A stretch of 20,477 nt of DNA, from IMG/VR virus record IMGVR_UViG_2703718852_000002, positions 1-20,477 of that record; one strand, given 5' to 3'. The stretch comes from a virus. Taxonomy: Duplodnaviria > Heunggongvirae > Uroviricota > Caudoviricetes. Every line of letters starts with the position of its first letter. Within the stretch, counting starts at the first letter, position 1. A program made the translations under genes and the position numbers. Positions 3,949 to 17,857 of this stretch are shown here, in pieces. Below the pieces are notes generated by a model, which was not told where the DNA came from, ran no database searches, and worked only from the letters and a program-made list of their open reading frames with translations.

Positions 3949-4802
3949 GCACCATCCTGAAATGGGCGGGAAATAAAACTGCCATAATGTCCGAACTGAA
4001 AAAACATCTTCCTGCTGGCCCGCGACTGGTTGAACCTTTCGCGGGTTCCTGTGCTGTGATGATGGAGACGGATTATCCCAGCTATCTGGTTGCGGATATT
4101 AATCCTGATTTAATCAACCTCTATAAAAAGGTTGCCGCTGATTGTGAATCGTTTATATCTCGCGCCAGAGTTTTATTTGAGATCGCAAACAGGGAAGTGG
4201 CTTATTACAACATAAGGCAGGAGTTTAATTACTCAACTGAAATTACTGATTTCATGAAAGCGGTATATTTCCTGTATCTCAATCGTCACGGTTACCGTGG
4301 TTTATGTCGCTATAACAAGAGCGGGCATTTCAACATTCCCTACGGTAATTATAAAAATCCGTATTTCCCTGAAAAAGAAATTCGCGCATTTGCAGAAAAG
4401 GCCCAGCGAGCAACGTTTATCTGCGCCAGCTTTGATGAAACGCTGGCGATGTTGAAGGCGGGGGATGTGGTGTATTGCGATCCGCCGTATGACGGTACGT
4501 TTTCCGGCTATCACACTGACGGCTTCACTGAAGATGACCAGTATCACCTGGCATCTGTTCTTGAACATCGGTCATCAGAAGGACATCCGGTCATTGTTTC
4601 TAACAGTGACACATCCCTGATCCGTTCGCTGTATCGCAATTTTACTCACCACTACATCAAGGCAAAACGCAGCATCGGTGTGGCAGCTGGCGAGGGTAAA
4701 TCAGCAACAGAAATCATTGCTGTTTCCGGGCCGCGCTGCTGGGTGGGATTTGATTATTCGCGTGGCGTGGATAGTTCTGCCGTGTACGGAGTACGTGCAT
4801 GA
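3945..4802 (+). CDS. dam: DNA adenine methyltransferase, Dam/D12 class (285 aa)
   Basis: [20 protein letters not shown] (SAM-binding FxGxG) and YCDPPY catalytic motif. GGAGG before ATG 3945; ATGA overlaps with both neighbours. The track start at 3885 is an upstream extension. Confidence 0.9.
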
Positions 4803-7213
4803 GTCATGCCGATATGAACAACTGCTGCGGCTTTAACGAAGCTGCCGCATCGTTCTCATGGAACAGCTCGAAAAAGGCCATTAACCCTTATCTGGACCCG
4901 GTGGAAGTTGCGCCGGTTTCTACGCTTTCAAACCTGATCACTCTGTACGCTGCCGATAACGAGCAGGAACAGCTGCGCCGTGAGGCGCTGAGTGATCAGG
5001 TCTGGGAGCGTTATTTCTTTAATGAATCCCGTGATCCTGTCCAGCGCGAAATGGAACAGGATAAGCTCATTAGTCGGGCAAAGCTGGCGCATGAGCAGCA
5101 GCGTTTTAATCCGGATATGGTCATTCTGGCGGACGTCAACGCCCAGCCTTCCCATATCAGCAAGCCGCTGATGCAACGTATTGAATACTTCAGCAGCCTG
5201 GGCAGGCCAAAGGCTTATTCCCGCTATTTACGTGAGACGATTAAGCCATGTCTGGAACGACTGGAGCATGTACGCGACAGTCAGCTATCTGCATCTTTTC
5301 GCTTTATGGCAAGCCATGAAGGGCTGGACGGCCTGCTGATCCTGCCTGAAATGAGTCAGTTTCAGGTGAAACGCCTGTCCACCCTGGTAGCTGCGCATAT
5401 GAGTATGTGCCTTGATGCCGCTTGTGGCGATTTGTATGCCACCGATGACGTTAAGCCAGAAGAAATCCGCAATACATGGGAAAGGGTGGCAGCGGAAACC
5501 CTGCGTCTGGATGTCATCCCGCCTGCGTTTGAGCAACTCCGTCGGAAAAGAAACCGCCGTAAACCCGTGCCCTATGAACTCATTCCGGGTTCGCTGGCGC
5601 GTATGTTGTGCGCCGACTGGTGGTATCGGAAATTATGGAAGATGCGTTGCGAATGGCGGGAAGAGCAGTTGCGTGCTGTCTGCCTTGTCAGCAAAAAAGC
5701 ATCTCCCTATGTCAGCTATGAAGCCGTGTTGCATAAACGTGAGCAGCGCCGTAAGTCGCTGGAGTTTTTCCGTTCTCATGAACTGGTGAACGAAGACGGC
5801 GACACGCTGGACATGGAGGATGTGGTAAACGCCAGCAGCAGCAACCCTGCGCATCGCCGCAATGAGATGATGGCCTGTGTTAAAGGTCTGGAGCTTATCG
5901 CGGAAATGCGCGGTGACTGCGCCGTTTTCTACACCATCACCTGTCCGTCACGTTTCCATTCCACGCTAAATAACGGCAGGCCCAACCCGACCTGGACAAA
6001 TGCGACGGTAAGACAAAGCAGCGATTATCTGGTCGGTATGTTTGCTGCATTTCGTAAGGCGATGCACAAAGCCGGGTTGCGCTGGTATGGCGTGCGGGTG
6101 GCTGAGCCGCATCACGACGGCACAGTTCACTGGCACCTGTTGTGTTTCATGCGCAAAAAAGACCGCCGCGCCATTACAGCATTGTTGCGTAAGTTTGCTA
6201 TCCGTGAAGACCGCGAGGAGCTGGGCAATAACACGGGGCCGCGCTTTAAGTCTGAGCTGATTAACCCGCGCAAAGGAACGCCGACAAGCTACATAGCGAA
6301 ATACATCAGTAAGAACATTGACGGGCGTGGTCTGGCTGGCGAGATCAGCAAGGAAACGGGTAAATCTCTGCGTGATAACGCTGAATACGTGAATGCCTGG
6401 GCGTCTTTGCATCGTGTTCAGCAATTCCGCTTCTTTGGCATTCCGGGGCGTCAGGCTTACCGTGAACTGCGATTGCTGGCTGGTCAGGCGGCAAGGCAAA
6501 AGGGGGACAAAAAAGCAGGTGCGCCGGTACTGGATAACCCGCGCCTTGATGCCATCCTGGCTGCTGCTGATGCTGGTTGTTTTGCCACCTACATCATGAA
6601 GCAGGGCGGCGTACTGGTTCCCCGTAAATATCACCTCATCAGAACCGCTTATGAAATCAACGAAGAGCCGACCGCCTATGGCGATCACGGCATTCGTATT
6701 TATGGCATCTGGTCACCCATTGCAGAGGGCAAGATCTGCACTCATGCAGTGAAGTGGAAAATGGTTCGTAAAGCCGTTGACGTTCAGGAGGCGGCAGCCG
6801 ACCAGGGCGCTTGCGCCCCTTGGACTCGTGGCAATAACTGTCCCCTTGCTGAAAATTTGAACCAACAGGAGAAAGATAAATCAGCTGATGGGGACCCCAG
6901 AACGGACATTACCAGCATGGATGACAAGGAGTTGCACGATTACCTGCACAGTATGAGCAAAAAAGAGCGCCGGGAACTGGCAGCAAGGTTACGCCTGGTG
7001 AAACCGAAACGGCGTAAAGACTACAAACAGCGAATTACAGACCATCAGCGACTGCAGCTCGTGTATGAGCTGAAGTCCAGAGGATTTGATGGCAGCGAGA
7101 AAGAGGTCGATTTACTCCTTCGCGGAGGCAGTATTCCGTCAGGAGCAGGCCTGCGTATCTTCTATCGGAACCAGCGTTTGCAGGAAGATGATCAGTGGCG
7201 GAACCTGTATTAA
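4799..7213 (+). CDS. A: Replication initiation endonuclease gpA (rolling-circle Rep, 804 aa)
   Basis: HUH-type motif [10 protein letters not shown] and the two-tyrosine motif [10 protein letters not shown] typical of P2/186 A and phiX174-type initiators. Size and position match P2-family gene A. Confidence 0.9.
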
Positions 7214-7366: not shown

Positions 7367-7555
7367 ATGCAGGACTATTTTTTGGAGTCTTTGAAGCTCC
7401 AGCGCATTGATTTTTTTCTTAAGCTTGTAGCGGCTAGTGAGTGTAGTGATGAAGAGAAGGGGCTGGCTCTGCAGTGGGTTTCTGAATTGACTGATGAACT
7501 CATGGCAAAAATCAGAACCCACGAATACAACCGCTCAATGGATGTCATCAGCTGA
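7367..7555 (+). CDS. Small SOS-controlled protein, candidate Tum-like antirepressor (62 aa)
   Basis: AGGAGGAAAG-ATG at 7367, directly downstream of the LexA boxes. Same map position as the LexA-controlled tum of 186. Function is inferred from context only. Confidence 0.45.
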   Translation: MQDYFLESLKLQRIDFFLKLVAASECSDEEKGLALQWVSELTDELMAKIRTHEYNRSMDVIS

Positions 7556-7565
7556 GGTGACTTTT

Positions 7566-7799
7566 ATGCGCATTGAAATAATGATCGATAAAGAGCAGAA
7601 GATTAGCCAGTCTACCCTGGACGCCCTTGAATCCGAGCTTTACCGCAATCTGCGCCCCCTGTATCCCAAAACGGTAATTCGCATTCGCAAAGGTAGCTCT
7701 AACGGTGTGGAACTAACCGGACTGCAACTGGACGAAGAAAGAAAACAAGTGATGAAAATTATGCAGAAGGTGTGGGAAGACGACAGCTGGCTGCATTAA
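7566..7799 (+). CDS. DinI-like protein (77 aa)
   Basis: MRIEIMIDKEQ...LDALESELYRNL...QKVWEDDSWLH parallels E. coli DinI (MRIEVTI...IDALAGELSRR...QETWESADDW). GAGGTG RBS. Confidence 0.8.
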   Translation: MRIEIMIDKEQKISQSTLDALESELYRNLRPLYPKTVIRIRKGSSNGVELTGLQLDEERKQVMKIMQKVWEDDSWLH

Positions 7800-8196: not shown

Positions 8197-8667
8197 ATGT
8201 CTATCGAGGAAAAATTTTTTAGTGATATCGATTTAAAAGATCCGTTTTTTAACAGCCTAAGAGCTGATTATGAAGGATTTGATGTTTGGTTTCTCTCAAA
8301 AGGTAAAAATAAGGCGTTTGTATCACGTAATGAATTAGGTGAAATCGATGGTTTTCTCTATTTGAAAATAGAAGATGAAGAGTTGAGTGATATGACTCCA
8401 ACGTTTCCAAAGATGAAGCGAGTAAAGCTTGGCACATTTAAAATCGATGCTCATGGAACCAAACTTGGAGAGCGTTTTATTAGAATTATGTTTCAATTTG
8501 CTATGAGAAACAAACTAAAAGAAGTATATGTTACTATATTTGATAAGCATTCAGGATTAATTCGCTTATTAACTAAATATGGTTTTGTTTTAAAGGCGAG
8601 GAAAAATCTTTCTACGATTAATGGGCAAGAAGGTGTATACTTTAAAAACTTGGTATGGAAGGAGTAA
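8197..8667 (+). CDS. Cargo gene 1: GNAT-fold acetyltransferase-like protein (156 aa)
   Basis: AGAGGA RBS. The C-terminal half, FKIDAHGTKLGERFIRIMFQFAMRNKLKEVYVTIFDKHSGLIRLLTKYGFVLKA, fits the GNAT beta4-alpha3 / ...YxKxGF pattern. The existence of the ORF is more certain than its function. AT-rich. Confidence 0.6.
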   Translation: MSIEEKFFSDIDLKDPFFNSLRADYEGFDVWFLSKGKNKAFVSRNELGEIDGFLYLKIEDEELSDMTPTFPKMKRVKLGTFKIDAHGTKLGERFIRIMFQFAMRNKLKEVYVTIFDKHSGLIRLLTKYGFVLKARKNLSTINGQEGVYFKNLVWKE

Positions 8668-8670
8668 AAA

Positions 8671-9252
8671 ATGAGCTATGCTAATTATCCCTTAGTCAAA
8701 TTGCAGGGGAGAAATTATTTATTAAGTATTTATCCTGCATGGCATACACGTCTTTTCCCTGAGTCAAAACTCCACAATGAGAGTGCTGGTATCATCGCTG
8801 ATATATCACATACCAACAGTATTGAAAAAGTATACTTAACAAAAATGCATGGGGTAGCCAGCCTAAAGCCTGGAGATAATTTGCTTATTTATCGTACTTC
8901 AGATGGACAAGGTCCAGCTCGGTTTAGATCTGTTGCAACTTCAGTGTGTGTGGTTCAGGAAATTAAAGATATTCACGATTTCTTAACTTATGAGGAATTT
9001 AAGAATTACTGTGAACCTTATAGCGTTTTTGATGAAGATGAGTTACAGCTTCTATATATGAAAAAAAATTATCCGATAATTATACGGTTTACTTATAATT
9101 TCCCTTTGGAAAAAAGAGTTATTCGTGATGAAATCATGAATATTACAGGTTATACCAATAGTGATTATTGGGGTTTTTTACCACTAACTGATTCAGCATT
9201 TAAGCAGATTGTCTTACAGGGAGGTGTTGATGAAAGTTTTATTATCGATTAA
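8671..9252 (+). CDS. Cargo gene 2: unknown 193-aa protein, possibly a divergent PUA-like/ASCH-type beta-barrel
   Basis: AAGGAG RBS, start 4 nt after the gene 1 stop. The core LKPGDNLLIYRTSDGQGPARFRSVATSVCVVQEIKD resembles the strand-turn-strand core of ASCH/EVE-type folds. No catalytic motif was recognised with confidence. Confidence 0.45.
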   Translation: MSYANYPLVKLQGRNYLLSIYPAWHTRLFPESKLHNESAGIIADISHTNSIEKVYLTKMHGVASLKPGDNLLIYRTSDGQGPARFRSVATSVCVVQEIKDIHDFLTYEEFKNYCEPYSVFDEDELQLLYMKKNYPIIIRFTYNFPLEKRVIRDEIMNITGYTNSDYWGFLPLTDSAFKQIVLQGGVDESFIID

Positions 9253-9601
9253 GCCAGAGTATGCAGAGAGTATACTTTCTGGTAAAAAAAAATATGAGTT
9301 TCGGAAAAATATTTTTAGAAATAAAAATGTTGATACGATAGTTATTTACGCAACGATGCCGGTTGGCAAAGTAATAGGTGAATTTAAAGTAGGAGATATT
9401 CTTGCTCTATCCCCTTCAGAATTGTGGGATAAAACGAAAGCTCATGCAGGAATTACACATTCTTTTTTTAAAGATTATTTCCACCAAAGAGAAAAGGCTT
9501 TTGCTATTTCCATCAAAAGCCCTAAAAGATATAAATTCCCTGTCGACTTAAATGAGTTGATTCCCGGCGGCGTCGCCCCACAGTCTTATCGTTATTTATA
9601 A
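9230..9601 (+). CDS. Cargo gene 3: ASCH-domain protein (123 aa)
   Basis: GGAGGTG RBS; ATG 9230 overlaps the end of gene 2 by 23 nt. MKVLLSIKPEYAESILSGKKKYEFRKNIFRNKNVDTIVIYATMPVGKVIGEFKVGDIL...AFAISIKSPKRYKFPVDL is the classic stand-alone ASCH (COG4933-type) pattern. Confidence 0.75.
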   Translation: MKVLLSIKPEYAESILSGKKKYEFRKNIFRNKNVDTIVIYATMPVGKVIGEFKVGDILALSPSELWDKTKAHAGITHSFFKDYFHQREKAFAISIKSPKRYKFPVDLNELIPGGVAPQSYRYL

Positions 9602-10141
9602 TGTTGTCTGGGCATGTTTCTTAACCATGCCCAGTTTTTCTAGGGCAATAGATAAATCGTTTGTTGTTGGGGATTCTAAGATAATTAATGGTACATTGAT
9701 TTTATTTGTAACATATTTTGCGTTTTCTCTTTCAGCTTCCATCAGCTTATTTAAATCATAAGTAATATCACTCCCATCTCGTTTCATTATTCGTTCTCTA
9801 ATTGTATCGGGAGACTCCTCAACTAAAATTACTCCATCTAGCCCCATTTCCTCAAATACTTCTTGCTTGAGAACTTCAATATCTCCATTTTTATTTATTA
9901 AGGTAAAATGACCATCCAATAAAATATTGGATACCTTTAACTTTAATGCATTAAGTGCCGTAAGTAATATTGATTGGTTTTTATCAGGTGTGGCCGTTAA
10001 CTTACTGTTATCAAATTTAATATTAGAATTATTTTTTATAAGTTCGCTTGCGCTTACATGAGTTACCCCGAAATCATCTTTTGCAAATGAACACAAGTAA
10101 CCTTTGCCTACACCATGAACACCTGCTATGAAAATTAACAT
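9596..10141 (-). CDS. Cargo gene 4: P-loop NMP/adenylate-kinase-like protein (181 aa)
   Basis: GGAGGT RBS. Walker A IAGVHGVGKGY (a GKG-type loop as in adenylate kinases) and LLDGHF (compare ILDGFP of Adk). Convergent with gene 3; the 3' ends overlap by 6 nt. Confidence 0.65.
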   Translation of the reverse strand: MLIFIAGVHGVGKGYLCSFAKDDFGVTHVSASELIKNNSNIKFDNSKLTATPDKNQSILLTALNALKLKVSNILLDGHFTLINKNGDIEVLKQEVFEEMGLDGVILVEESPDTIRERIMKRDGSDITYDLNKLMEAERENAKYVTNKINVPLIILESPTTNDLSIALEKLGMVKKHAQTTL

Positions 10142-10166
10142 AGTATTACCTCCGTTTATTTATTTA

Positions 10167-10175
10167 TGTTAGAAT
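10167..10175 (+). promoter_or_regulatory. Extended -10 promoter candidate (TGTTAGAAT) for the ASCH-2/AbiC-like operon
   Basis: TGn-TAGAAT at 10167-10175, with a weak -35 (TTACCT, 18-nt spacer). Predicted TSS ~10182, 25 nt before ATG 10207. Confidence 0.4.
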
Positions 10176-10189
10176 GTTATAGCCTTAGC

Positions 10190-10218
10190 ATAGTAGAGGA
10201 TAGAGCATGAAGTTTCAA
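10190..10218 (-). promoter_or_regulatory. Promoter candidate for the kinase-like gene: TTGAAA-17 nt-TACTAT (minus strand)
   Basis: -35 at 10218-10213 and -10 at 10195-10190 on the minus strand, exact 17-nt spacer. Predicted TSS ~10183, about 42 nt before ATG 10141. Confidence 0.45.
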
Positions 10219-10584
10219 GCTATATCGATTTTGACTCCAGCGGTAGAAAATATTATAAATGGTTCTAAATCTATCGAAATACGGTCGTGGTATCCTGAAA
10301 CGATACCATTAAAAAACGTCATTCTTGTTCAGAATGATAAATATCTTAAAAATCAAAGCGATATAGATCATGGGGTGGCTATGGCTATTGTCGATTTTGT
10401 TTCAGTTAGAAATTGGTCATATGAGGATTACTTAAAACAAAACCAAGAAACAACTCTTAATAAGCCTTGGTCTCCAGGTTATTATGTGTGGGAAATTAAA
10501 AATGTTAGAATTTTAAAAAAATCTATTCCTTGTGTGGCGAGGAAAGGTATTTATACAATAGATTTAAATATGGATTATATATAA
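10207..10584 (+). CDS. Cargo gene 5: ASCH-domain protein (125 aa)
   Basis: GAGGA RBS. MKFQAISILTPAVENIINGSKSIEIRSWYPETIPLKNVILVQ fits the common ASCH opening (AxSIxQPWAxxIxxGxKxIEIRSW...). Confidence 0.7.
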   Translation: MKFQAISILTPAVENIINGSKSIEIRSWYPETIPLKNVILVQNDKYLKNQSDIDHGVAMAIVDFVSVRNWSYEDYLKQNQETTLNKPWSPGYYVWEIKNVRILKKSIPCVARKGIYTIDLNMDYI

Positions 10585-10595
10585 GGTATTGTGAG

Positions 10596-11387
10596 ATGTG
10601 TGGTGCCATTCTTCGAAATATTAAGCGTTATGCCATTATTTATTCACTGTTGTTTTTGGCTTTTATTTTAATGCTGATAGTGTTTGTTAGCTATGTTTGT
10701 AAATTTGGAGTGTATTCATGGAGTGATTCCGTAGAGAAATGGGGACAGTTTGGCGATTATATTGGTGGTGTACTGAATCCTGCTCTGGCCTTTATCTCTA
10801 TCATGCTTGTTTGTTTCACACTATATTCTACATCTAGGCAGTCATCTATTCAGTCATTCGAGTCTGTGTTATTTGAGTTACTAAGATTTCATAAAGATAA
10901 CTTATCAGAAATTAAAACAACGTATTCAGATGGAAAAGTGTATGTAGGACGGGAGGCTCTTTCATTATACATTACCGAAGTGAAGTTTAACCTACTTAAT
11001 ATTGTGGATGATTCACTTCCTTTGGATGAAAGGTTAGAGCTTTCAGTTAATATGGTTTATCTGGAAGGTGACAATTTTGCGAATGTGGGACATTATTTCA
11101 GGAATATTTACCATATTTTTAAACATATCAATGACTCTAACTATTTGACTGAGAAAGAAAAAACCAAGTATGCGAAATTAGTTAGAGCACAAATATCTTC
11201 TATAGAATCTGGCGCGATGCTATTAAATGGTTTTTCATCGGTAGGAAAGCCTGCCAAGAAATTTATTGAAAAATATTCTCTCCTTCAGGGGTTTAGTTTA
11301 AGTAAGGAATTCAAGCAGCAATTACATGATTTAGGTGCCTTAAAATTATACGATGACGTTGCTTATGAGGATAAAAAAGGGCATTAA
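10596..11387 (+). CDS. Cargo gene 6: two-TM membrane protein, AbiC-like putative abortive-infection effector (263 aa)
   Basis: Starts 11 nt after gene 5. Two N-terminal hydrophobic helices (AIIYSLLFLAFILMLIVFVSYV and VLNPALAFISIMLVCFTLY) flank WGQFGDYIGGVLNP, the signature I associate with the Pfam 'putative phage abortive infection protein' (putAbiC) family. The C-terminal region is soluble and helical. Confidence 0.6.
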   Translation: MCGAILRNIKRYAIIYSLLFLAFILMLIVFVSYVCKFGVYSWSDSVEKWGQFGDYIGGVLNPALAFISIMLVCFTLYSTSRQSSIQSFESVLFELLRFHKDNLSEIKTTYSDGKVYVGREALSLYITEVKFNLLNIVDDSLPLDERLELSVNMVYLEGDNFANVGHYFRNIYHIFKHINDSNYLTEKEKTKYAKLVRAQISSIESGAMLLNGFSSVGKPAKKFIEKYSLLQGFSLSKEFKQQLHDLGALKLYDDVAYEDKKGH

Positions 11388-11394
11388 ATGCCCT
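11378..11394. terminator. Bidirectional hairpin AGGGCAT-TAA-ATGCCCT at the cargo/portal boundary
   Basis: Perfect 7-bp stem. On the minus strand it is followed by TTTTTTA, so it serves as a Q terminator. The stop codons of gene 6 (11385-11387) and Q (11384-11386, minus strand) both sit in or beside the loop. Confidence 0.55.
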
Positions 11395-12220
11395 TATCTT
11401 GGTCAAGGATGTAGTCATTAAATGACACAATATTTTGATTTATCCAGGTGTTTAGCTCAACTAGTCTTTTCTGCAAAGGAACCAACTCATTTCTGACAAA
11501 AACCTTCGCGGCTTTTTCCACATCCCCAAACCCTCCAACATTATTAGGCATAATCCCCATCATTTGCGGCGGCACGCGGTGCGCAGCCATCATGTCATCA
11601 CGGCTCACGTTCTTGATATTCAGAAACTCATCCTTCGCCGCAACTTCTGACAATGGGATAATCTGAAGCCCGTCCTTTTTGCCGTTAGGCGAGTACATAA
11701 ACAGGTTGCGGAAGTTGCCCGGACCTTTGGCGCTTTTCATCGCATTGCGGAGGTTGTTCACATCTTCCTGGTTCTGCGCGGCATCGGTCATGTACATGAT
11801 GAAGCCTGCATGACTGCCGTTAATGTAATACTTCCGGCGGAACAGCGTGGCGGACTCGTTGAGCAGGGCTGACGGAATGGCAGAAAGATAACCTGGCAGG
11901 CCGTAGATCTCCTGGTTGATGTCCGGTTCCATCAGATGAAAAATGCTGCCTTTCGTGAACTGATACGGCTGGGTTGTCATACCGTATTGCACAAACCAGT
12001 AGGTATCCAGGTCTAACCCGCGTCGGGTATATTTTGCCAGAGCAGGCTCAAGGGCGATAACTTCACCGAAGCGGTTCGTGCGTTTCTCCAGGTAGGCGTT
12101 ACCAAATACCAGATAGTCCTGCACAAAACGTGAAAAAGCCTGCTGGCTGAGCAGCGGGTGAGGGATGTAGGTACTGGTCAGAATGTTGCATTTTACTGCA
12201 ATCGGTGACCGGAAGCAGAG
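11384..12220 (-). pseudogene. Q: Portal protein gpQ, 5'-truncated (C-terminal ~275 codons retained)
   Basis: SPIAVKCNILTSTYIPHPLLSQQAFSRF...LNESATLFRRKYYINGSHAGFIMY...VFVRNELVPLQ matches P2 gpQ from about residue 70 onward. Upstream of ~12210 the minus-strand frame reads antisense to the J remnant (track ORF to 12337). Confidence 0.85.
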
Positions 12221-12439
12221 CCGGTAATGGCAGCGGCAAAAGCCAGTCTGCAGAAGTACATTGCCAGCCAGACGAGGCTTGGTCGGGATATTCGCCGTAG
12301 CGCCATCTTTGCTGCTCTGCATGTTGAGGGTGTTCAACGTGTGGAACTGGCTTCTCCGCTGGCGGATGTGGTCCTGAACAAAACACAGGCGGCATCATGT
12401 ACGCAGTGGAGCGTAACCAACGGAGGAACGGATGAATAG
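12209..12439 (+). pseudogene. J: Baseplate protein gpJ, 3' remnant (~75 codons)
   Basis: ...RLGRDIRRSAIFAALHVEGVQRVELASPLADVVL...GGTDE is a P2 gpJ C-terminus. An in-frame stop at 12206-12208 lies just upstream. The remnant is immediately followed by, and overlaps, gene I as in P2. Confidence 0.75.
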
Positions 12440-13037
12440 TCTGCTGCCACCGGGTTCAACTTCACTGGAGCGCCGACTGGCGCAAACCTGTAGCGGGATT
12501 TCTGATTTGCAGGTGCCGCTGCGTGACTTGTGGAATCCGGCTACCTGTCCGGTCAGCTTCCTGCCTTATCTCGCCTGGGCGTTCTCTGTGGATCGCTGGG
12601 ACGAGGGCTGGACAGAAAGCGTCAAACGCCAGGTAGTGAAGGATGCTTTTTATATTCATCAGCATAAAGGAACCACCAGTGCCGTGCGGCGGGTGGTGGA
12701 ACCGTTCGGATTCCTGATCCGCATTATTGAGTGGTGGCAGACCGGAGAAACACCGGGCACGTTTCGCCTGGATATCGGCGTGCAGGACCAGGGCATCACT
12801 GAAGATACCTATCTGGAACTTGAGCGACTGATAAGCGATGCCAAACCATGTAGCCGCCACATGATCGGCATGTCCATCAATCTGCAGACCAGCGGCCCGC
12901 ATTGGGTGGGAGCCGCCAGCTATCTTGGCGAAGAAATCACGATCTATCCGTATATCAACGAAACGATTATTTCCGGTGGCACCGCGCATGAAGGCGGGGC
13001 GGTCCATGTTATTGACACAATGAGAGTGAATCCATGA
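12432..13037 (+). CDS. I: Baseplate/tail protein gpI (201 aa)
   Basis: GGAGGA RBS. MNSLLPPGSTSLERRLAQ...FLPYLAWAFSVDRWDEGW is typical of P2 gpI. Coupled to H (ATGA). Confidence 0.85.
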   Translation: MNSLLPPGSTSLERRLAQTCSGISDLQVPLRDLWNPATCPVSFLPYLAWAFSVDRWDEGWTESVKRQVVKDAFYIHQHKGTTSAVRRVVEPFGFLIRIIEWWQTGETPGTFRLDIGVQDQGITEDTYLELERLISDAKPCSRHMIGMSINLQTSGPHWVGAASYLGEEITIYPYINETIISGGTAHEGGAVHVIDTMRVNP

Positions 13038-14977
13038 GCACAAAATTTTATACCCTGCTGACGGATATTGGCGCGGCGAAACTTGCCAGCGCCGCCGCGC
13101 TCGGTGTGCCGCTAAAAATTACCCATATGGCGGTGGGCGATGGCGGTGGAGTATTGCCAACGCCGGACGCAAAGCAGACGGCACTGGTAAATGAGAAACG
13201 CCGGGCTGCGCTGAATATGCTTTATATCGACCCGCAGAACAGCAGCCAGATTATTGCCGAACAGGTGATCCCTGAAAACGAGGGCGGTTGGTGGATACGT
13301 GAAGTGGGCTTGTTTGATGAGTCCGGGGCATTGATTGCCGTGGGCAACTGCCCGGAAAGCTATAAGCCGCAACTGGCTGAAGGTAGCGGGCGCACTCAGA
13401 CCGTGCGCATGGTGCTGATTACCAGCAGCACGGACAATATCACCCTGAAAATCGACCCTGCTGTAGTGCTGGCAACCCGCAAGTATGTGGATGACAAGGC
13501 ACTGGAGCTGAAGGTGTACGCGGATGATCAGATGGCAAAACATCTTGCCGCACCGGACCCGCATTCACAGTACGCGCCAAAAGCCAGCCCGACATTTACC
13601 GGAACCCCCAAAGCGCCAACGCCAGCGGCGGGGAATAATACCACGCAGGTTGCGACCACTGCGTTTGTACAGGCGGCACTGACGGCCCTTATTAATGGTG
13701 CGCCAGCCACGCTGGACACGCTGAAAGAAATAGCCGCAGCCATTAACAATGATCCGAATTTCAGTACCACCATTAACAATGCGCTGGCACTAAAAGCACC
13801 GTTGTCGAGTCCGGCACTCACCGGAACGCCAACAGCCCCCACGGCGGCGCAGTCGGTCAACAATACACAGATTGCCACTACGGCTTTTGTGAAATCGGCG
13901 ATTGCAGGAATGGTGGGTTCTGCACCTGCTGCACTGGATACACTGAACGAACTGGCGGCGGCACTGGGGAATGATCCGAACTTTGCCACGACAATGCTTA
14001 ATGCGCTGGCAGGTAAACAACCGCTGGACAATACGCTTACCAATTTGAGTGGAAAGGATGTGGCTGGTCTTCTCGCATACCTTCAATTGGGAGAAGCGGC
14101 AAAACGGGATGTCGGAACCGGTAATAATCAACTCCCGGACATGTCCGCATTTGGTATGTCGCGAAACGGACAAACTGCCTGGGATATTCTCCCAAATGGT
14201 ATGATTCGACAGGCTGGCACTGTGACACTGACACCAGTTGGTAACTTCAACGAAATTGTTCTTGGTGGAGTGACGTACTACACCCATTACTACAGGGTTA
14301 ATTTCCCCAGACAATTCCCAAATGCACAAATAGCAACGCTGGCAACACTAGCGAGCTCAGAGTTTTCGAAACAGACAACAATGGCCGGAAAATCACTGGC
14401 AACGCATCGCGATACTGATTCTGGCACTGACGTATCAAGAACGCGATTCACTGTGGCGTACGGCAGCAGTAACTCGAACCAGCAGCGCGTTGTCCTGGCT
14501 GGCTGGCGCACCACTGGCACTGCTGCGACGCGGGCTTGCTTCATCGGGCAACGCCGCAGGTTTACTTACTGCGCCGTTGTCGTCTTTGCGCCGCACGGCA
14601 TCACTGACGGGAAATGTCCTGAAAACTGTAGCAGGTGCGCCGGTTGCACTTTTGCGGTCTGGATTATCCGGTTTACGTGCTGTTGCTGTGATGTTTATGA
14701 ATCCTCTGGCGGTACTGCGCGGTGGACTGGCCGCCGCAGGCACGGTGCTGCGAGTACTGGCATCTGGTCCACTGGCGATGCTGCGCGTTGCCCTGTATGC
14801 CATATCTGGTCTGTTAGGTGCTCTGCTCAGTCCGATAGGTCTTGTGGTTACTGCACTGGCGGGCGTGGCGCTGGTTGTCTGGAAATACTGGCAACCCATC
14901 ACCGCATTTCTCGGTGGCGTGGTGGAAGGATTCAAAGCGGCGGCAGGTCCCATCAGTGCAGCGTTCGAACCGCTTAA
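13034..14977 (+). pseudogene. H: Tail fibre gpH, 3'-truncated and fused out of frame into the tape-measure gene
   Basis: P2 H-like N-terminus MSTKFYTLLTDIGAAKLASAAALGVPLKITHMAVGDGGG. Fibre-like sequence runs to ~14488 (...TVAYGSSNSNQQ). After that the frame gives a Cys/Arg/Gly-rich nonsense tail across T DNA until the stop at 14977. Confidence 0.8.
13631..14025 (+). repeat. Tandem ~75-aa repeat inside the tail fibre
   Basis: NNTTQVATTAFVQAALTALINGAPATLDTLKEIAAAINNDPNFSTTINNALALKAP is repeated as VNNTQIATTAFVKSAIAGMVGSAPAALDTLNELAAALGNDPNFATTMLNALAGKQP. This is a common phage fibre repeat. Confidence 0.8.
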
Positions 14978-15734
14978 GCCCGTGTTCCAGTGGATTGGCG
15001 ACAAAGTGCAGGCGCTGTGGGGCTGGTTTACTGATCTGCTGACGCCCGTTAAGTCGACCTCTGCCGAACTGCAGAGCGCAGCGGCAATGGGGCGGCGATT
15101 CGGGGAGGCACTGGCGGAAGGGCTGAATATGGTCATGCATCCGCTGGACTCCCTGAAATCCGGCGTTTCCTGGTTGCTGGAGAAGCTCGGCATTGTCAGT
15201 AAAGAGGCCGCAAAGGCAAAACTGCCGGAAAGCGTGACGCGTCAGCAACCTGCGACGGTGAATGCAGACGGTAAAGTGATGATGCCATCGGGTGGTTTTC
15301 CATCATGGGGATATGGCTTTGCGGGGATGTATGACAGCGGCGGGTATATCCCGCGCGGGCAGTTTGGCATCGTCGGTGAAAACGGGCCGGAAATTGTTAA
15401 CGGCCCGGCAAATGTGACCAGCCGGAGAAATACAGCTGCACTGGCTGCCGTTGTTGCCGGAATGATGGGCGTTGCTGCCGCGCCAGCAGAGCTTCCACCG
15501 TTGCACCCTTTGGCACTTCCCGCGAAAGGTGGAGAAGCAATTGTGAGTCGCGCAGCCACTGTGCCGCTCGTTCAACGGATTGAGGCACCGACGCAGATCA
15601 TCATTCAGACGCAGCCAGGACAAAGTGCGCAGGATATTGCGCGGGAGGTGGCACGCCAGCTTGATGAACGTGAACGCAGGCTGAAGGCAAAAGCCAGGAG
15701 TAACTACAGCGATCAGGGGGGATACGACGCATGA
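14490..15734 (+). pseudogene. T: Tape-measure protein gpT, 5'-truncated (C-terminal ~414 codons)
   Basis: Ala/Gly/Leu-rich periodic PLALLRRGL / PVALLRSGL / PLAVLRGGL units, then ...GGYIPRGQFGIVGENGPEIV..., typical of P2 gpT. There is no credible start (TTG only). Followed by U with an ATGA overlap. Confidence 0.8.
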
Positions 15735-17645: not shown

Positions 17646-17701
17646 CGTTAAAAAACAGTGTTTCTAACATCATGATTTTAAACAGCTTAAATTTCAGGCA
17701 A

Positions 17702-17746
17702 CAAAAAACCCATCAACCTTGAACCGAAATGGCGGGGTTGATGGGC
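17702..17746 (-). terminator. Rho-independent terminator downstream of ybjL
   Basis: CCCATCAACC...GGTTGATGGG stem (10 bp, 17-nt loop), followed on the minus strand by TTTTTTGT. About 110 nt after the ybjL stop. Confidence 0.5.
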
Positions 17747-17857
17747 TCCACAAAATGGGGACATCAAAGAAAAGCAGTGGCACTAATTAAGACTGATGCC
17801 CTGCGGAAAAGTTCTGCGGTTGTGCAAAAAAATTTCATTTTCAGGGCAACTTCAGTT

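Follow-up and report, generated by a model that had tools for sequence, protein, structure and literature searches.

The minus-strand gene at positions 9596–10141 of a 20,477-nt stretch of viral DNA (IMG/VR record IMGVR_UViG_2703718852_000002; the whole stretch is called the window below) is a recurrent partner of the GNAT-EVE/ASCH module to its left, and not a stray insert. The original prediction for this DNA had seen it as an independent gene wedged between two operons; elsewhere, we found it to be mostly co-directional with the ASCH gene and often fused to it. Its product, referred to as the kinase, looks like a catalytically intact P-loop enzyme with the fold of the nucleoside monophosphate (NMP) kinases, closest to the archaeal adenylate kinases, and it is an accessory, dispensable component. 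The explanation that we favour, with moderate confidence, is that the gene is the optional third member of a GNAT-EVE plus ASCH module, whose product would act as one functional unit with the ASCH protein and use ATP to tune the core.

Results

Association of the kinase with GNAT-EVE and ASCH genes

The six-gene cassette of the window recurs in a Klebsiella lambdoid prophage, in a Proteus chromosomal island beside ahpCF and in an Enterobacter P2-like prophage, with kinase homologues of 71%, 46% and 44% identity that are always encoded on the opposite strand. A kinase-seeded scan of one genome per species gave 28 further loci from Gamma- and Betaproteobacteria, Cyanobacteria, Saccharibacteria, Verrucomicrobiota and Desulfobulbus, including Pseudomonas, Acidovorax, Nitrincola, Colwellia and Thiobacillaceae. 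A GNAT protein is encoded in 26 of these 28 loci, and an ASCH partner lies beside the kinase in 25. The ASCH and kinase genes are co-directional and adjacent in 15 loci, typically overlapping by 4 nt, and form a single open reading frame (ORF) in two (L023 and L032). The window thus has the adjacent GNAT-EVE genes and the adjacent ASCH gene of the operons known from the literature, and the association of these genes with an AAA_17 protein recurs in distant taxa.

Fusions of 320–339 aa with the order ASCH-kinase make up 5 of the best 150 family representatives, and with one of them as the query, more than 100 distinct 90%-identity clusters of this architecture were retrieved, down to 41% identity. 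A separate group of proteins of about 300 aa has the reverse order, kinase-ASCH, and its ASCH domain carries the same partner-type motifs. One ASCH-kinase fusion was modelled, with confidence throughout (predicted local distance difference test score, pLDDT, 93.5; predicted template modelling score, pTM, 0.88). The fusions are not assembly artefacts, and their occurrence in both domain orders is strong evidence that the kinase and its ASCH partner act together.

Other arrangements were also observed among these loci. Pseudomonas has an HTH_3-ASCH fusion as the partner, with a convergent kinase gene (L019, 8053–8898; L021, 8083–8910). Cyanobacterial GNAT proteins begin with a T5orf172 domain where the literature describes PIN (L030, 3931–5448; L033, 3098–3790). 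An Acidovorax locus (L016, 2113–6540) has two tandem GNAT-EVE/ASCH modules with a stand-alone GNAT gene between them, and the kinase gene follows the second only.

The association itself is already known from comparative genomics, since the passages of Bell, Wolf & Koonin (2020, PMC7641849) on these operons record AAA_17 proteins as frequent, though not invariable, members of (PIN)-GNAT-EVE/ASCH operons. For this family, the suggestion that kinases are unusual in defence loci does not agree with that record. The same passages describe a cluster in which EVE is fused to GNAT and PIN is frequently found at the N-terminus, in proteins that are common in prophages of beta- and gammaproteobacteria and were uncharacterised as of 2020; they suggest modified nucleic acids or aminoacyl-tRNA as targets of the GNAT-EVE/ASCH core, and credit Iyer et al. 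(2013) with its first description, together with a proposal of DNA base acetylation.

These operons correspond to PDC-M11 of PADLOC, which is a candidate anti-phage system only. The window resembles them in having GNAT, EVE-like, ASCH and AAA_17 proteins all together, at a gammaproteobacterial prophage site, in a family where AAA_17 is frequent but variable and HTH-ASCH variants are seen. It differs in encoding GNAT and EVE in two ORFs, in having the kinase gene inverted, with a candidate promoter of its own, and in the addition of genes for a second ASCH-like protein and an AbiC-like membrane protein. PADLOC has no model for the kinase (PDC-M11 consists of the A and B models only), and VakA, the sole PADLOC match of the kinase (E 0.007), was treated as noise.

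Fold and conserved residues of the kinase

The kinase matches Pfam AAA_17 (PF13207) with 66.8 bits (cut-off 27, E 3.1e-18, residues 7–126) and also AAA_18. Its score with Pfam ADK (24.1 bits, E 4e-5) is below the gathering threshold of 26.8, and the NCBIfam models of adenylate and UMP/CMP kinases give weak matches only (PRK04040, 32 vs a cut-off of 155; TIGR01360, 29.9 vs 284). The AlphaFold2 model built on the homologue alignment (pLDDT 90.5, pTM 0.87) has a three-layer P-loop core, an NMP-binding helical insert and a LID. In structure comparison UMP kinase (15.2) and hCINAP/AK6 (14.2) come after the best matches and are followed by many small-molecule kinases, with no AAA+ or ABC protein among the structural matches. 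The original prediction of an NMP-kinase fold, rather than an AAA+ or ABC ATPase, thus holds in both the profile and the structure comparisons.

An AAA+ or ABC ATPase was rejected for having the wrong fold, and databases mislabel the protein as 'AAA family ATPase'; the papers on GNAT-EVE/ASCH operons likewise speak of an 'AAA+ ATPase', whereas the fold of the window protein is that of an NMP kinase. Nor is the kinase an orthologue of Adk or AdkA: its scores are under all curated cut-offs, by which a housekeeping Adk was also rejected, and its set of arginines is incomplete. It does not match the Zeta/PezT-type toxin kinases, zeta toxins are absent from its nearest structures, and the polynucleotide 5'-kinases (Pnkp/Clp1/Grc3) are not its closest neighbours. 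Identity to solved kinases is 16–20%, with AK1 and UMP/CMP kinases as the best sequence matches in the PDB. The PHROG matches are confined to 'thymidylate kinase' (PHROG 761) and 'dNMP kinase' families, a tblastn search against phages gave a single weak match in an Enterococcus phage, and a fold search of BFVD returned generic viral nucleotide kinases only.

The two motifs from which the kinase fold had been predicted, a GKG-type Walker A and LLDGHF, are both present (Table 1). LLDGHF aligns with the 'DTH' strand of the AdkA kinases and with 'DGFPR' of the classical NMP kinases, of which the arginine is missing. In the family profile alignment 'LLDGHFtL..G.I....vF..L.lDGVILLE' pairs with LIVDTHMSLKTPYGFYPGLIPETINIIQPDGIILLE of the Odinarchaeota enzyme (in short form, 'LLDGHF...DGVILLE' with 'IVDTHM...DGIILLE' of OdinAK), and DGH is therefore the D-x-H strand typical of archaeal-type kinases. 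The segment 'HkSASeLIk' corresponds to the NMP-site helix 'HLSAGDLLR' of UMP/CMP kinase, and the position after 'SASELI' varies within the family (K/R/Q/T/A). R117 and R121 align with the start of the LID-region arginine pair of UMP/CMP and adenylate kinases. The residues G7, H9, G12, K13, A31, S32, L34, I35, K47, N55, Q56, L75, D76, G77, H78, L81, R117, R121 and E137 are invariant, which indicates that the ATP site and the acceptor-side pocket are conserved.

The archaeal AdkA enzymes (PDB 6LN3, 7OWE, 6PJW, 1KI9, 1NKS) share with the kinase the P-loop, the D-x-H strand followed by a beta-hairpin, and the 'DG(V/I)ILLE' strand with an Arg-rich segment after it. They differ in the low identity given above and in AdkA/Adk cut-offs that are far above the scores of the kinase, which has an invariant set of its own (H9, S32, K47, N55-Q56, E137) and is bacterial, mobile, and linked or fused to ASCH. 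Similarity to Fap7/hCINAP (AK6) is lower than to AdkA; Fap7 is eukaryotic or archaeal and essential, whereas the window kinase is dispensable and shows no sign of ribosome involvement.

The kinase gene and its convergent junction

The kinase gene was correctly placed by the original prediction. It is an ORF of 181 codons with an ATG start and a Shine-Dalgarno sequence, GGAGG, 7 nt upstream (complement of 10149–10153); the protein begins MLIFIAGVHGVGKG, and RefSeq annotates it identically in eight complete Escherichia coli genomes, as 'ATP-binding protein' WP_000904469.1. Searched against 1.84 billion proteins, a profile of 31 homologues retrieved 2,583 representatives of 50%-identity clusters at E<=1e-3, of which 781 reached E<=1e-30, and the ratio of nonsynonymous to synonymous substitution rates (dN/dS) is 0.17 against the Klebsiella orthologue and 0.21 against that of Proteus. 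The ORF is therefore a genuine gene and not a chance reading frame.

The 6-nt overlap with the ASCH gene is also as described: the palindrome TTATAA holds the kinase stop (complement of 9596–9598) and the ASCH stop (9599–9601). As a functional feature it was rejected, the distance between the two genes across 20 related loci ranging from overlap (-6 and -4 nt) through +2 to a gap of +39 nt.

The further claim, that no terminator is visible at this junction, proved incorrect. An intrinsic-terminator-like hairpin starts 7 nt past the ASCH stop, within the C-terminal codons of the kinase, with the form CTGGGCATG-(9 nt)-CATGCCCAG followed by TTTTT. It has a GC-rich stem of 9 bp (9608–9616/9626–9634), a 9-nt loop and a T5 tract (9635–9639); its minimum free energy is -16.4 kcal/mol (z = -3.07), and only 1 of 200 shuffled sequences was as stable. 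A consensus terminator scan missed it because the loop limit of that scan is 8 nt. All 20 non-identical convergent ASCH/kinase junctions have a GC-rich hairpin (-12 to -21 kcal/mol) that begins 3–15 nt past the ASCH stop and is usually followed by a T-rich stretch, and the stem sequences differ. What is conserved at the junction is thus the hairpin structure, and neither its sequence nor the overlap. On the minus strand there is no T-tract after the hairpin, so read-through from the kinase side into the ASCH gene may occur. The idea of mutual antisense transcription, which presupposed the lack of a terminator, is not supported for transcripts from the ASCH side.

The kinase gene and the second ASCH-like gene are separated by a short divergent region. 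The extended -10 found there follows the consensus TGnTAnAAT, which is kept in the 61–67-bp divergent spacers of related cassettes, and the second ASCH-like and AbiC-like genes were observed to form a unit of their own under it.

The kinase is accessory and evolves fast

An ASCH alignment was also searched on viral contigs, which gave 80 prophage loci. Among these ASCH-seeded loci GNAT-EVE is present in 77 and the kinase in 29, and 23 belong to the enterobacterial variant, where the kinase gene is convergent throughout. Loci with a split GNAT|EVE have the inverted kinase and the second ASCH-like gene in all but two cases: L056 combines the ASCH-like gene with a decayed kinase, and both are missing from L063. 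Most of these split loci, but not all, also carry the AbiC-like gene.

In a Salmonella-type lineage (L043, 5811–5990, and L046) the insertion of one T after about codon 20 puts the kinase out of frame. This frameshifted kinase, seen in protein clusters P0003 and P0010, corresponds in the former to a 163-aa Salmonella cluster with 28 member sequences on 64 contigs. The copy in L056 (5372–5959) is heavily decayed. The neighbours of the inactivated copies are full length, with five genes intact beside the frameshift and intact genes also in L056. The kinase is absent from most ASCH-seeded loci and inactivated in others, and is therefore accessory and dispensable.

Of the cassette genes, that of the kinase evolves fastest. 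Its amino-acid identity to the Klebsiella counterpart is 71%, vs 90–95% for GNAT, EVE and ASCH; with Proteus, the values are 43% and 72–76%, respectively.

Neighbouring genes

The positions of the cassette genes and of the other features are collected in Table 1.

Table 1 Features of the kinase cassette and of the surrounding prophage in the window
Feature	Position	Strand	Evidence or remark
Replication endonuclease gpA	4799–7213		
DinI-like gene	7494–7799		
GNAT acetyltransferase half of PDC-M11A, separate ORF	8197–8667	+	PADLOC 1e-58, profile positions 11–160/357
EVE/PUA-like half of PDC-M11A, separate ORF	8671–9252	+	PADLOC 6e-69, profile positions 166–357/357
ASCH protein (PDC-M11B), ZmASCH family, putative direct kinase partner	9230–9601	+	PADLOC 2e-49, Pfam ASCH 6e-9
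Kinase: 181-aa P-loop protein, NMP-kinase fold (Pfam AAA_17), nearest archaeal adenylate kinases (AdkA type)	9596–10141	-	
Palindrome TTATAA, both stop codons, 6-nt convergent overlap	9596–9601	.	Not conserved in related loci
Intrinsic-terminator-like element for GNAT/EVE/ASCH transcript	9608–9639	+	Within kinase C-terminal codons
R117-x3-R121 (RIMKR, then D122-G123)	9779–9793	-	Both arginines invariant
LLDGHF, residues 74–79	9905–9922	-	L75, D76, G77, H78 invariant
Walker A/P-loop GVHGVGKG, residues 7–14	10100–10123	-	G7, H9, G12, K13 invariant in 31 homologues
Divergent intergenic region	10142–10206	.	65 bp
Conserved extended -10 TGtTAGAAT, for ASCH-like/AbiC-like operon	10167–10175	+	
Candidate kinase promoter TTGAAA-17-TACTAT	10218–10190	-	
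Second ASCH-like protein, 125 aa, divergent from kinase	10207–10584	+	Pfam ASCH 0.0017
AbiC-like membrane protein, 263 aa, optional last cassette gene	10596–11387	+	Pfam putAbiC 1e-18, PADLOC AbiC 1e-5
Portal-gene remnant	11384–12337	-	

PDC-M11A is usually one polypeptide of 350–510 aa, and in the window it is present as two ORFs, with a stop codon and 3 nt between them. Fused PDC-M11A homologues of other taxa match Pfam GNAT and EVE, and the split is kept in the E. coli, Klebsiella, Enterobacter and Proteus cassettes. Purifying selection on the two halves is strong (dN/dS of 0.066 for the GNAT half, an 'acetyltransferase' in PHROG, and 0.024 for the EVE half), which points to a functional split and not to a pseudogene.

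The profile of the ASCH partner matches ZmASCH of Zymomonas mobilis (PDB 5GUQ), its closest characterised relative and a member of one family with it, at E 3.9e-32, and ZmASCH in turn matches PDC-M11B with an E-value of 3e-29. In the fusion model, the ASCH domain can be superposed on ZmASCH (template modelling score 0.8, 28–29% identity), and the tyrosine equivalent to the catalytic Tyr47 of ZmASCH is invariant in the ASCH partner family. According to the parts of the ZmASCH study that describe its activity (PMC5615036), the protein is in vitro a weak Mg2+-dependent endonuclease of single-stranded RNA that cuts between pyrimidine and adenine, and it also removes the 5'-terminal nucleotide; Tyr47, Lys53 and Ser128 are needed. 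In its locus (L120, 3825–5447), the ZmASCH gene follows a 375-aa gene without a Pfam or PADLOC match at a distance of 48 nt and lies between mliC and argJ.

The second ASCH-like protein is confined to the variant in which the kinase gene is inverted, and has weak matches to the EOLA1/CXorf40 ASCH structures. We considered it as a duplicate of the ASCH partner and rejected this, since hhalign gave just 40% probability over 28 columns; the two are treated as distinct ASCH-superfamily proteins. The AbiC-like gene is absent from some otherwise identical cassettes (L057–L060, L062 and L064).

Prophage setting

The P2-like E. coli prophage that makes up the window has lost the terminase, capsid and lysis genes and most tail genes, and is therefore defective. 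The cassette occupies an AT-rich island of 3.2 kb (8197–11387) between the DinI-like and portal genes, with a G+C content of 31–39% vs 49–55% in the flanks. The variable region between gpA and the portal gene is a hotspot of anti-phage genes (Rousset et al. 2022, PMC9122126); the text of that paper makes no mention of the 8197–11387 island. Eight complete E. coli genomes have the identical layout with the portal gene intact (identity 99.7–99.9%), and a near-identity search of a phage collection with the island gave no match.

In the window the portal gene is shortened (317 aa vs 347) and borders directly on the genes of baseplate J and tail protein I (11384–12440). The junction of portal and baseplate J together with the island was found in none of the complete E. 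coli genomes of the collection searched. The small RNA RybB is encoded at 17700–17778 on the minus strand (Rfam RF00110, 105 bits), just past the phage tail genes; with RybB on one side and rcdA/ybjJ on the other in locus L001, the prophage is placed beside rybB. The tail-fibre ORF (13034–14977) has a Cys/Arg-rich low-complexity end and overlaps a 414-aa ORF in a different frame (14490–15734), pointing to a frameshifted or rearranged fibre gene.

Discussion

From the comparison of sequences and gene layouts we infer a mode of action in which the kinase would bind the ASCH protein, form one functional unit with it, and spend ATP on what the ASCH protein binds or releases. The substrate would most likely be a nucleotide or a 5'-terminal nucleotide, possibly modified. 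The kinase would in this way tune or extend the activity of the GNAT-EVE/ASCH core, to which it would be inessential. In the enterobacterial variant, the kinase gene is inverted under a candidate promoter of its own, GNAT-EVE is split and a second ASCH-like gene is added, often with an AbiC-like gene following, and the hairpin terminator at the convergent junction would insulate the kinase gene from the upstream operon.

Several points weigh against this proposal. The substrate of the kinase is not readable from its sequence, the arginine of 'DGFPR' being gone and just two LID-region arginines kept. In the variant of the window the kinase evolves with the right-hand genes, apart from ASCH, GNAT and EVE, so that here it may instead work with the second ASCH-like protein. 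The nuclease activity of ZmASCH is called weak by its authors and was observed in vitro only, and neither a kinase nor a recognisable GNAT-EVE gene was found at the ZmASCH locus. Finally, our literature searches (PDC-M11, GNAT-EVE, and ASCH with acetyltransferase or phage defence) returned no experiment on any component.

Of the roles put forward in the original prediction, conversion of a nucleotide pool and phosphorylation of nucleic-acid ends may still apply. Two alternatives keep the kinase within the module and are not separable by sequence from the optional-third-gene explanation. In one, which we consider possible but rather unlikely, the kinase is a ligand-sensing or ATP-switch regulator that would bind an infection-derived (deoxy)nucleoside monophosphate, (d)NMP, or sense ATP, and whose open/closed NMP-kinase motion would set free or switch on the ASCH nuclease, the GNAT effector or both. 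Fap7/AK6, which uses ATP to handle Rps14, may be likened to such a switch, and AK6-type proteins carry a DxH motif. The His after the Walker-B-like Asp of the kinase (D76-G-H78) is placed as in the DxH of AdkA/AK6-type proteins, the arginine that classically holds the NMP phosphate is missing, and the kinase is accessory and fast-evolving, as a sensor or modulator would be; a PUA-clan defence protein triggered by m6-dAMP, described in part of a recent preprint (bioRxiv 10.64898/2026.01.15.699771), provides a precedent. The invariant acceptor-side residues S32, K47, N55, Q56 and E137, however, suit catalysis equally, and the fold of the kinase is nearer to true adenylate kinases than to AK6. 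In the other alternative, which seems less probable still, the kinase would act on nucleic acid, either on 5'-OH ends left by ASCH cuts or on hydroxymethyl-pyrimidine in phage DNA flagged by EVE/ASCH. Its fusion to a nucleic-acid-binding, RNA-cleaving ASCH family argues for this, as does the reading of modified bases by EVE domains, noted in the EVE passages of PMC7641849. Kinases of the two kinds exist: the 5-hmdU DNA kinases (5-HMUDK) phosphorylate a hydroxymethyl-pyrimidine base in DNA, and Las1-Grc3 and T4 Pnkp are nuclease-kinase pairs. The latter resemble the ASCH-kinase pair in coupling a P-loop kinase to an RNA-cleaving protein, in the window family by fusion, but they have no sequence relationship to it and the window fold is nearer to the NMP kinases than to the polynucleotide kinases, so the analogy concerns mode of action and not membership.

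The remaining explanations are disfavoured by the evidence. Mutual antisense from the convergent overlap, with a kinase gene that is mainly regulatory or an antitoxin, would account for the convergent layout kept across the 23 enterobacterial loci and for kinase transcripts that may enter ASCH where the minus strand lacks a T-tract. We nevertheless regard it as very unlikely: the junction hairpin (with T5 in the window) ends the plus-strand operon and keeps its structure at 20 diverged junctions, the overlap is as variable as described above, and most other taxa have the kinase gene co-directional with, or fused to, ASCH. The antitoxin-like role raised in the original prediction was rejected as unlikely, with frameshifted or decayed kinase alleles persisting in some lineages beside intact neighbours. 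Least credible of all is a salvage 'moron', that is, a true adenylate or UMP/CMP kinase that boosts the nucleotide supply and is unrelated to its neighbours; AK1 and UMP/CMP kinases are the top PDB matches and PHROG 761 is labelled 'thymidylate kinase', but the scores fall under the Pfam ADK threshold and far under the NCBIfam Adk/Cmk cut-offs, identity to the solved kinases is low, and the linkage to ASCH is wide and tight, with frequent fusion.

A bolder form of the optional-third-gene proposal, which we think improbable, is that ASCH and kinase make up a two-step nucleotide-processing or sensing device, a new immune logic on an adenylate-kinase scaffold. In the processing version, the ASCH protein would excise a terminal or modified nucleotide from phage or host RNA or DNA, and the kinase would phosphorylate it, yielding a signal or a poisonous nucleotide, or making the cut irreparable. 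As a sensor, the kinase domain would instead respond to an infection-derived (d)NMP by activating both the ASCH nuclease and the GNAT effector.

Prophages and defence islands commonly carry GNAT-EVE/ASCH modules, and the whole is a candidate immune system in which the parts have no demonstrated roles. To this, the present analysis adds that the recurrent 'AAA_17 ATPase' is an adenylate-kinase-like enzyme of the archaeal NMP-kinase type; that ASCH-kinase fusions are abundant and repeated, with either domain first; and that the ASCH partner shares a family with ZmASCH, the sole bacterial ASCH nuclease studied by biochemistry. It also adds the enterobacterial architecture, with its junction terminator, and the recurrent natural loss of the kinase. 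The ideas that follow are testable, namely that kinase and ASCH form a complex, that the substrate is a nucleotide or a 5' end, and that the kinase is accessory and not part of the core, and natural kinase knock-out alleles exist in the Salmonella-type lineage for comparison. If the explanation is an ordinary one, the annotation 'AAA family ATPase' would still be corrected, and the convergent overlap would be a by-product of gene inversion buffered by a terminator. The kinase is thus a moderately interesting entry point into a known but uncharacterised candidate system.

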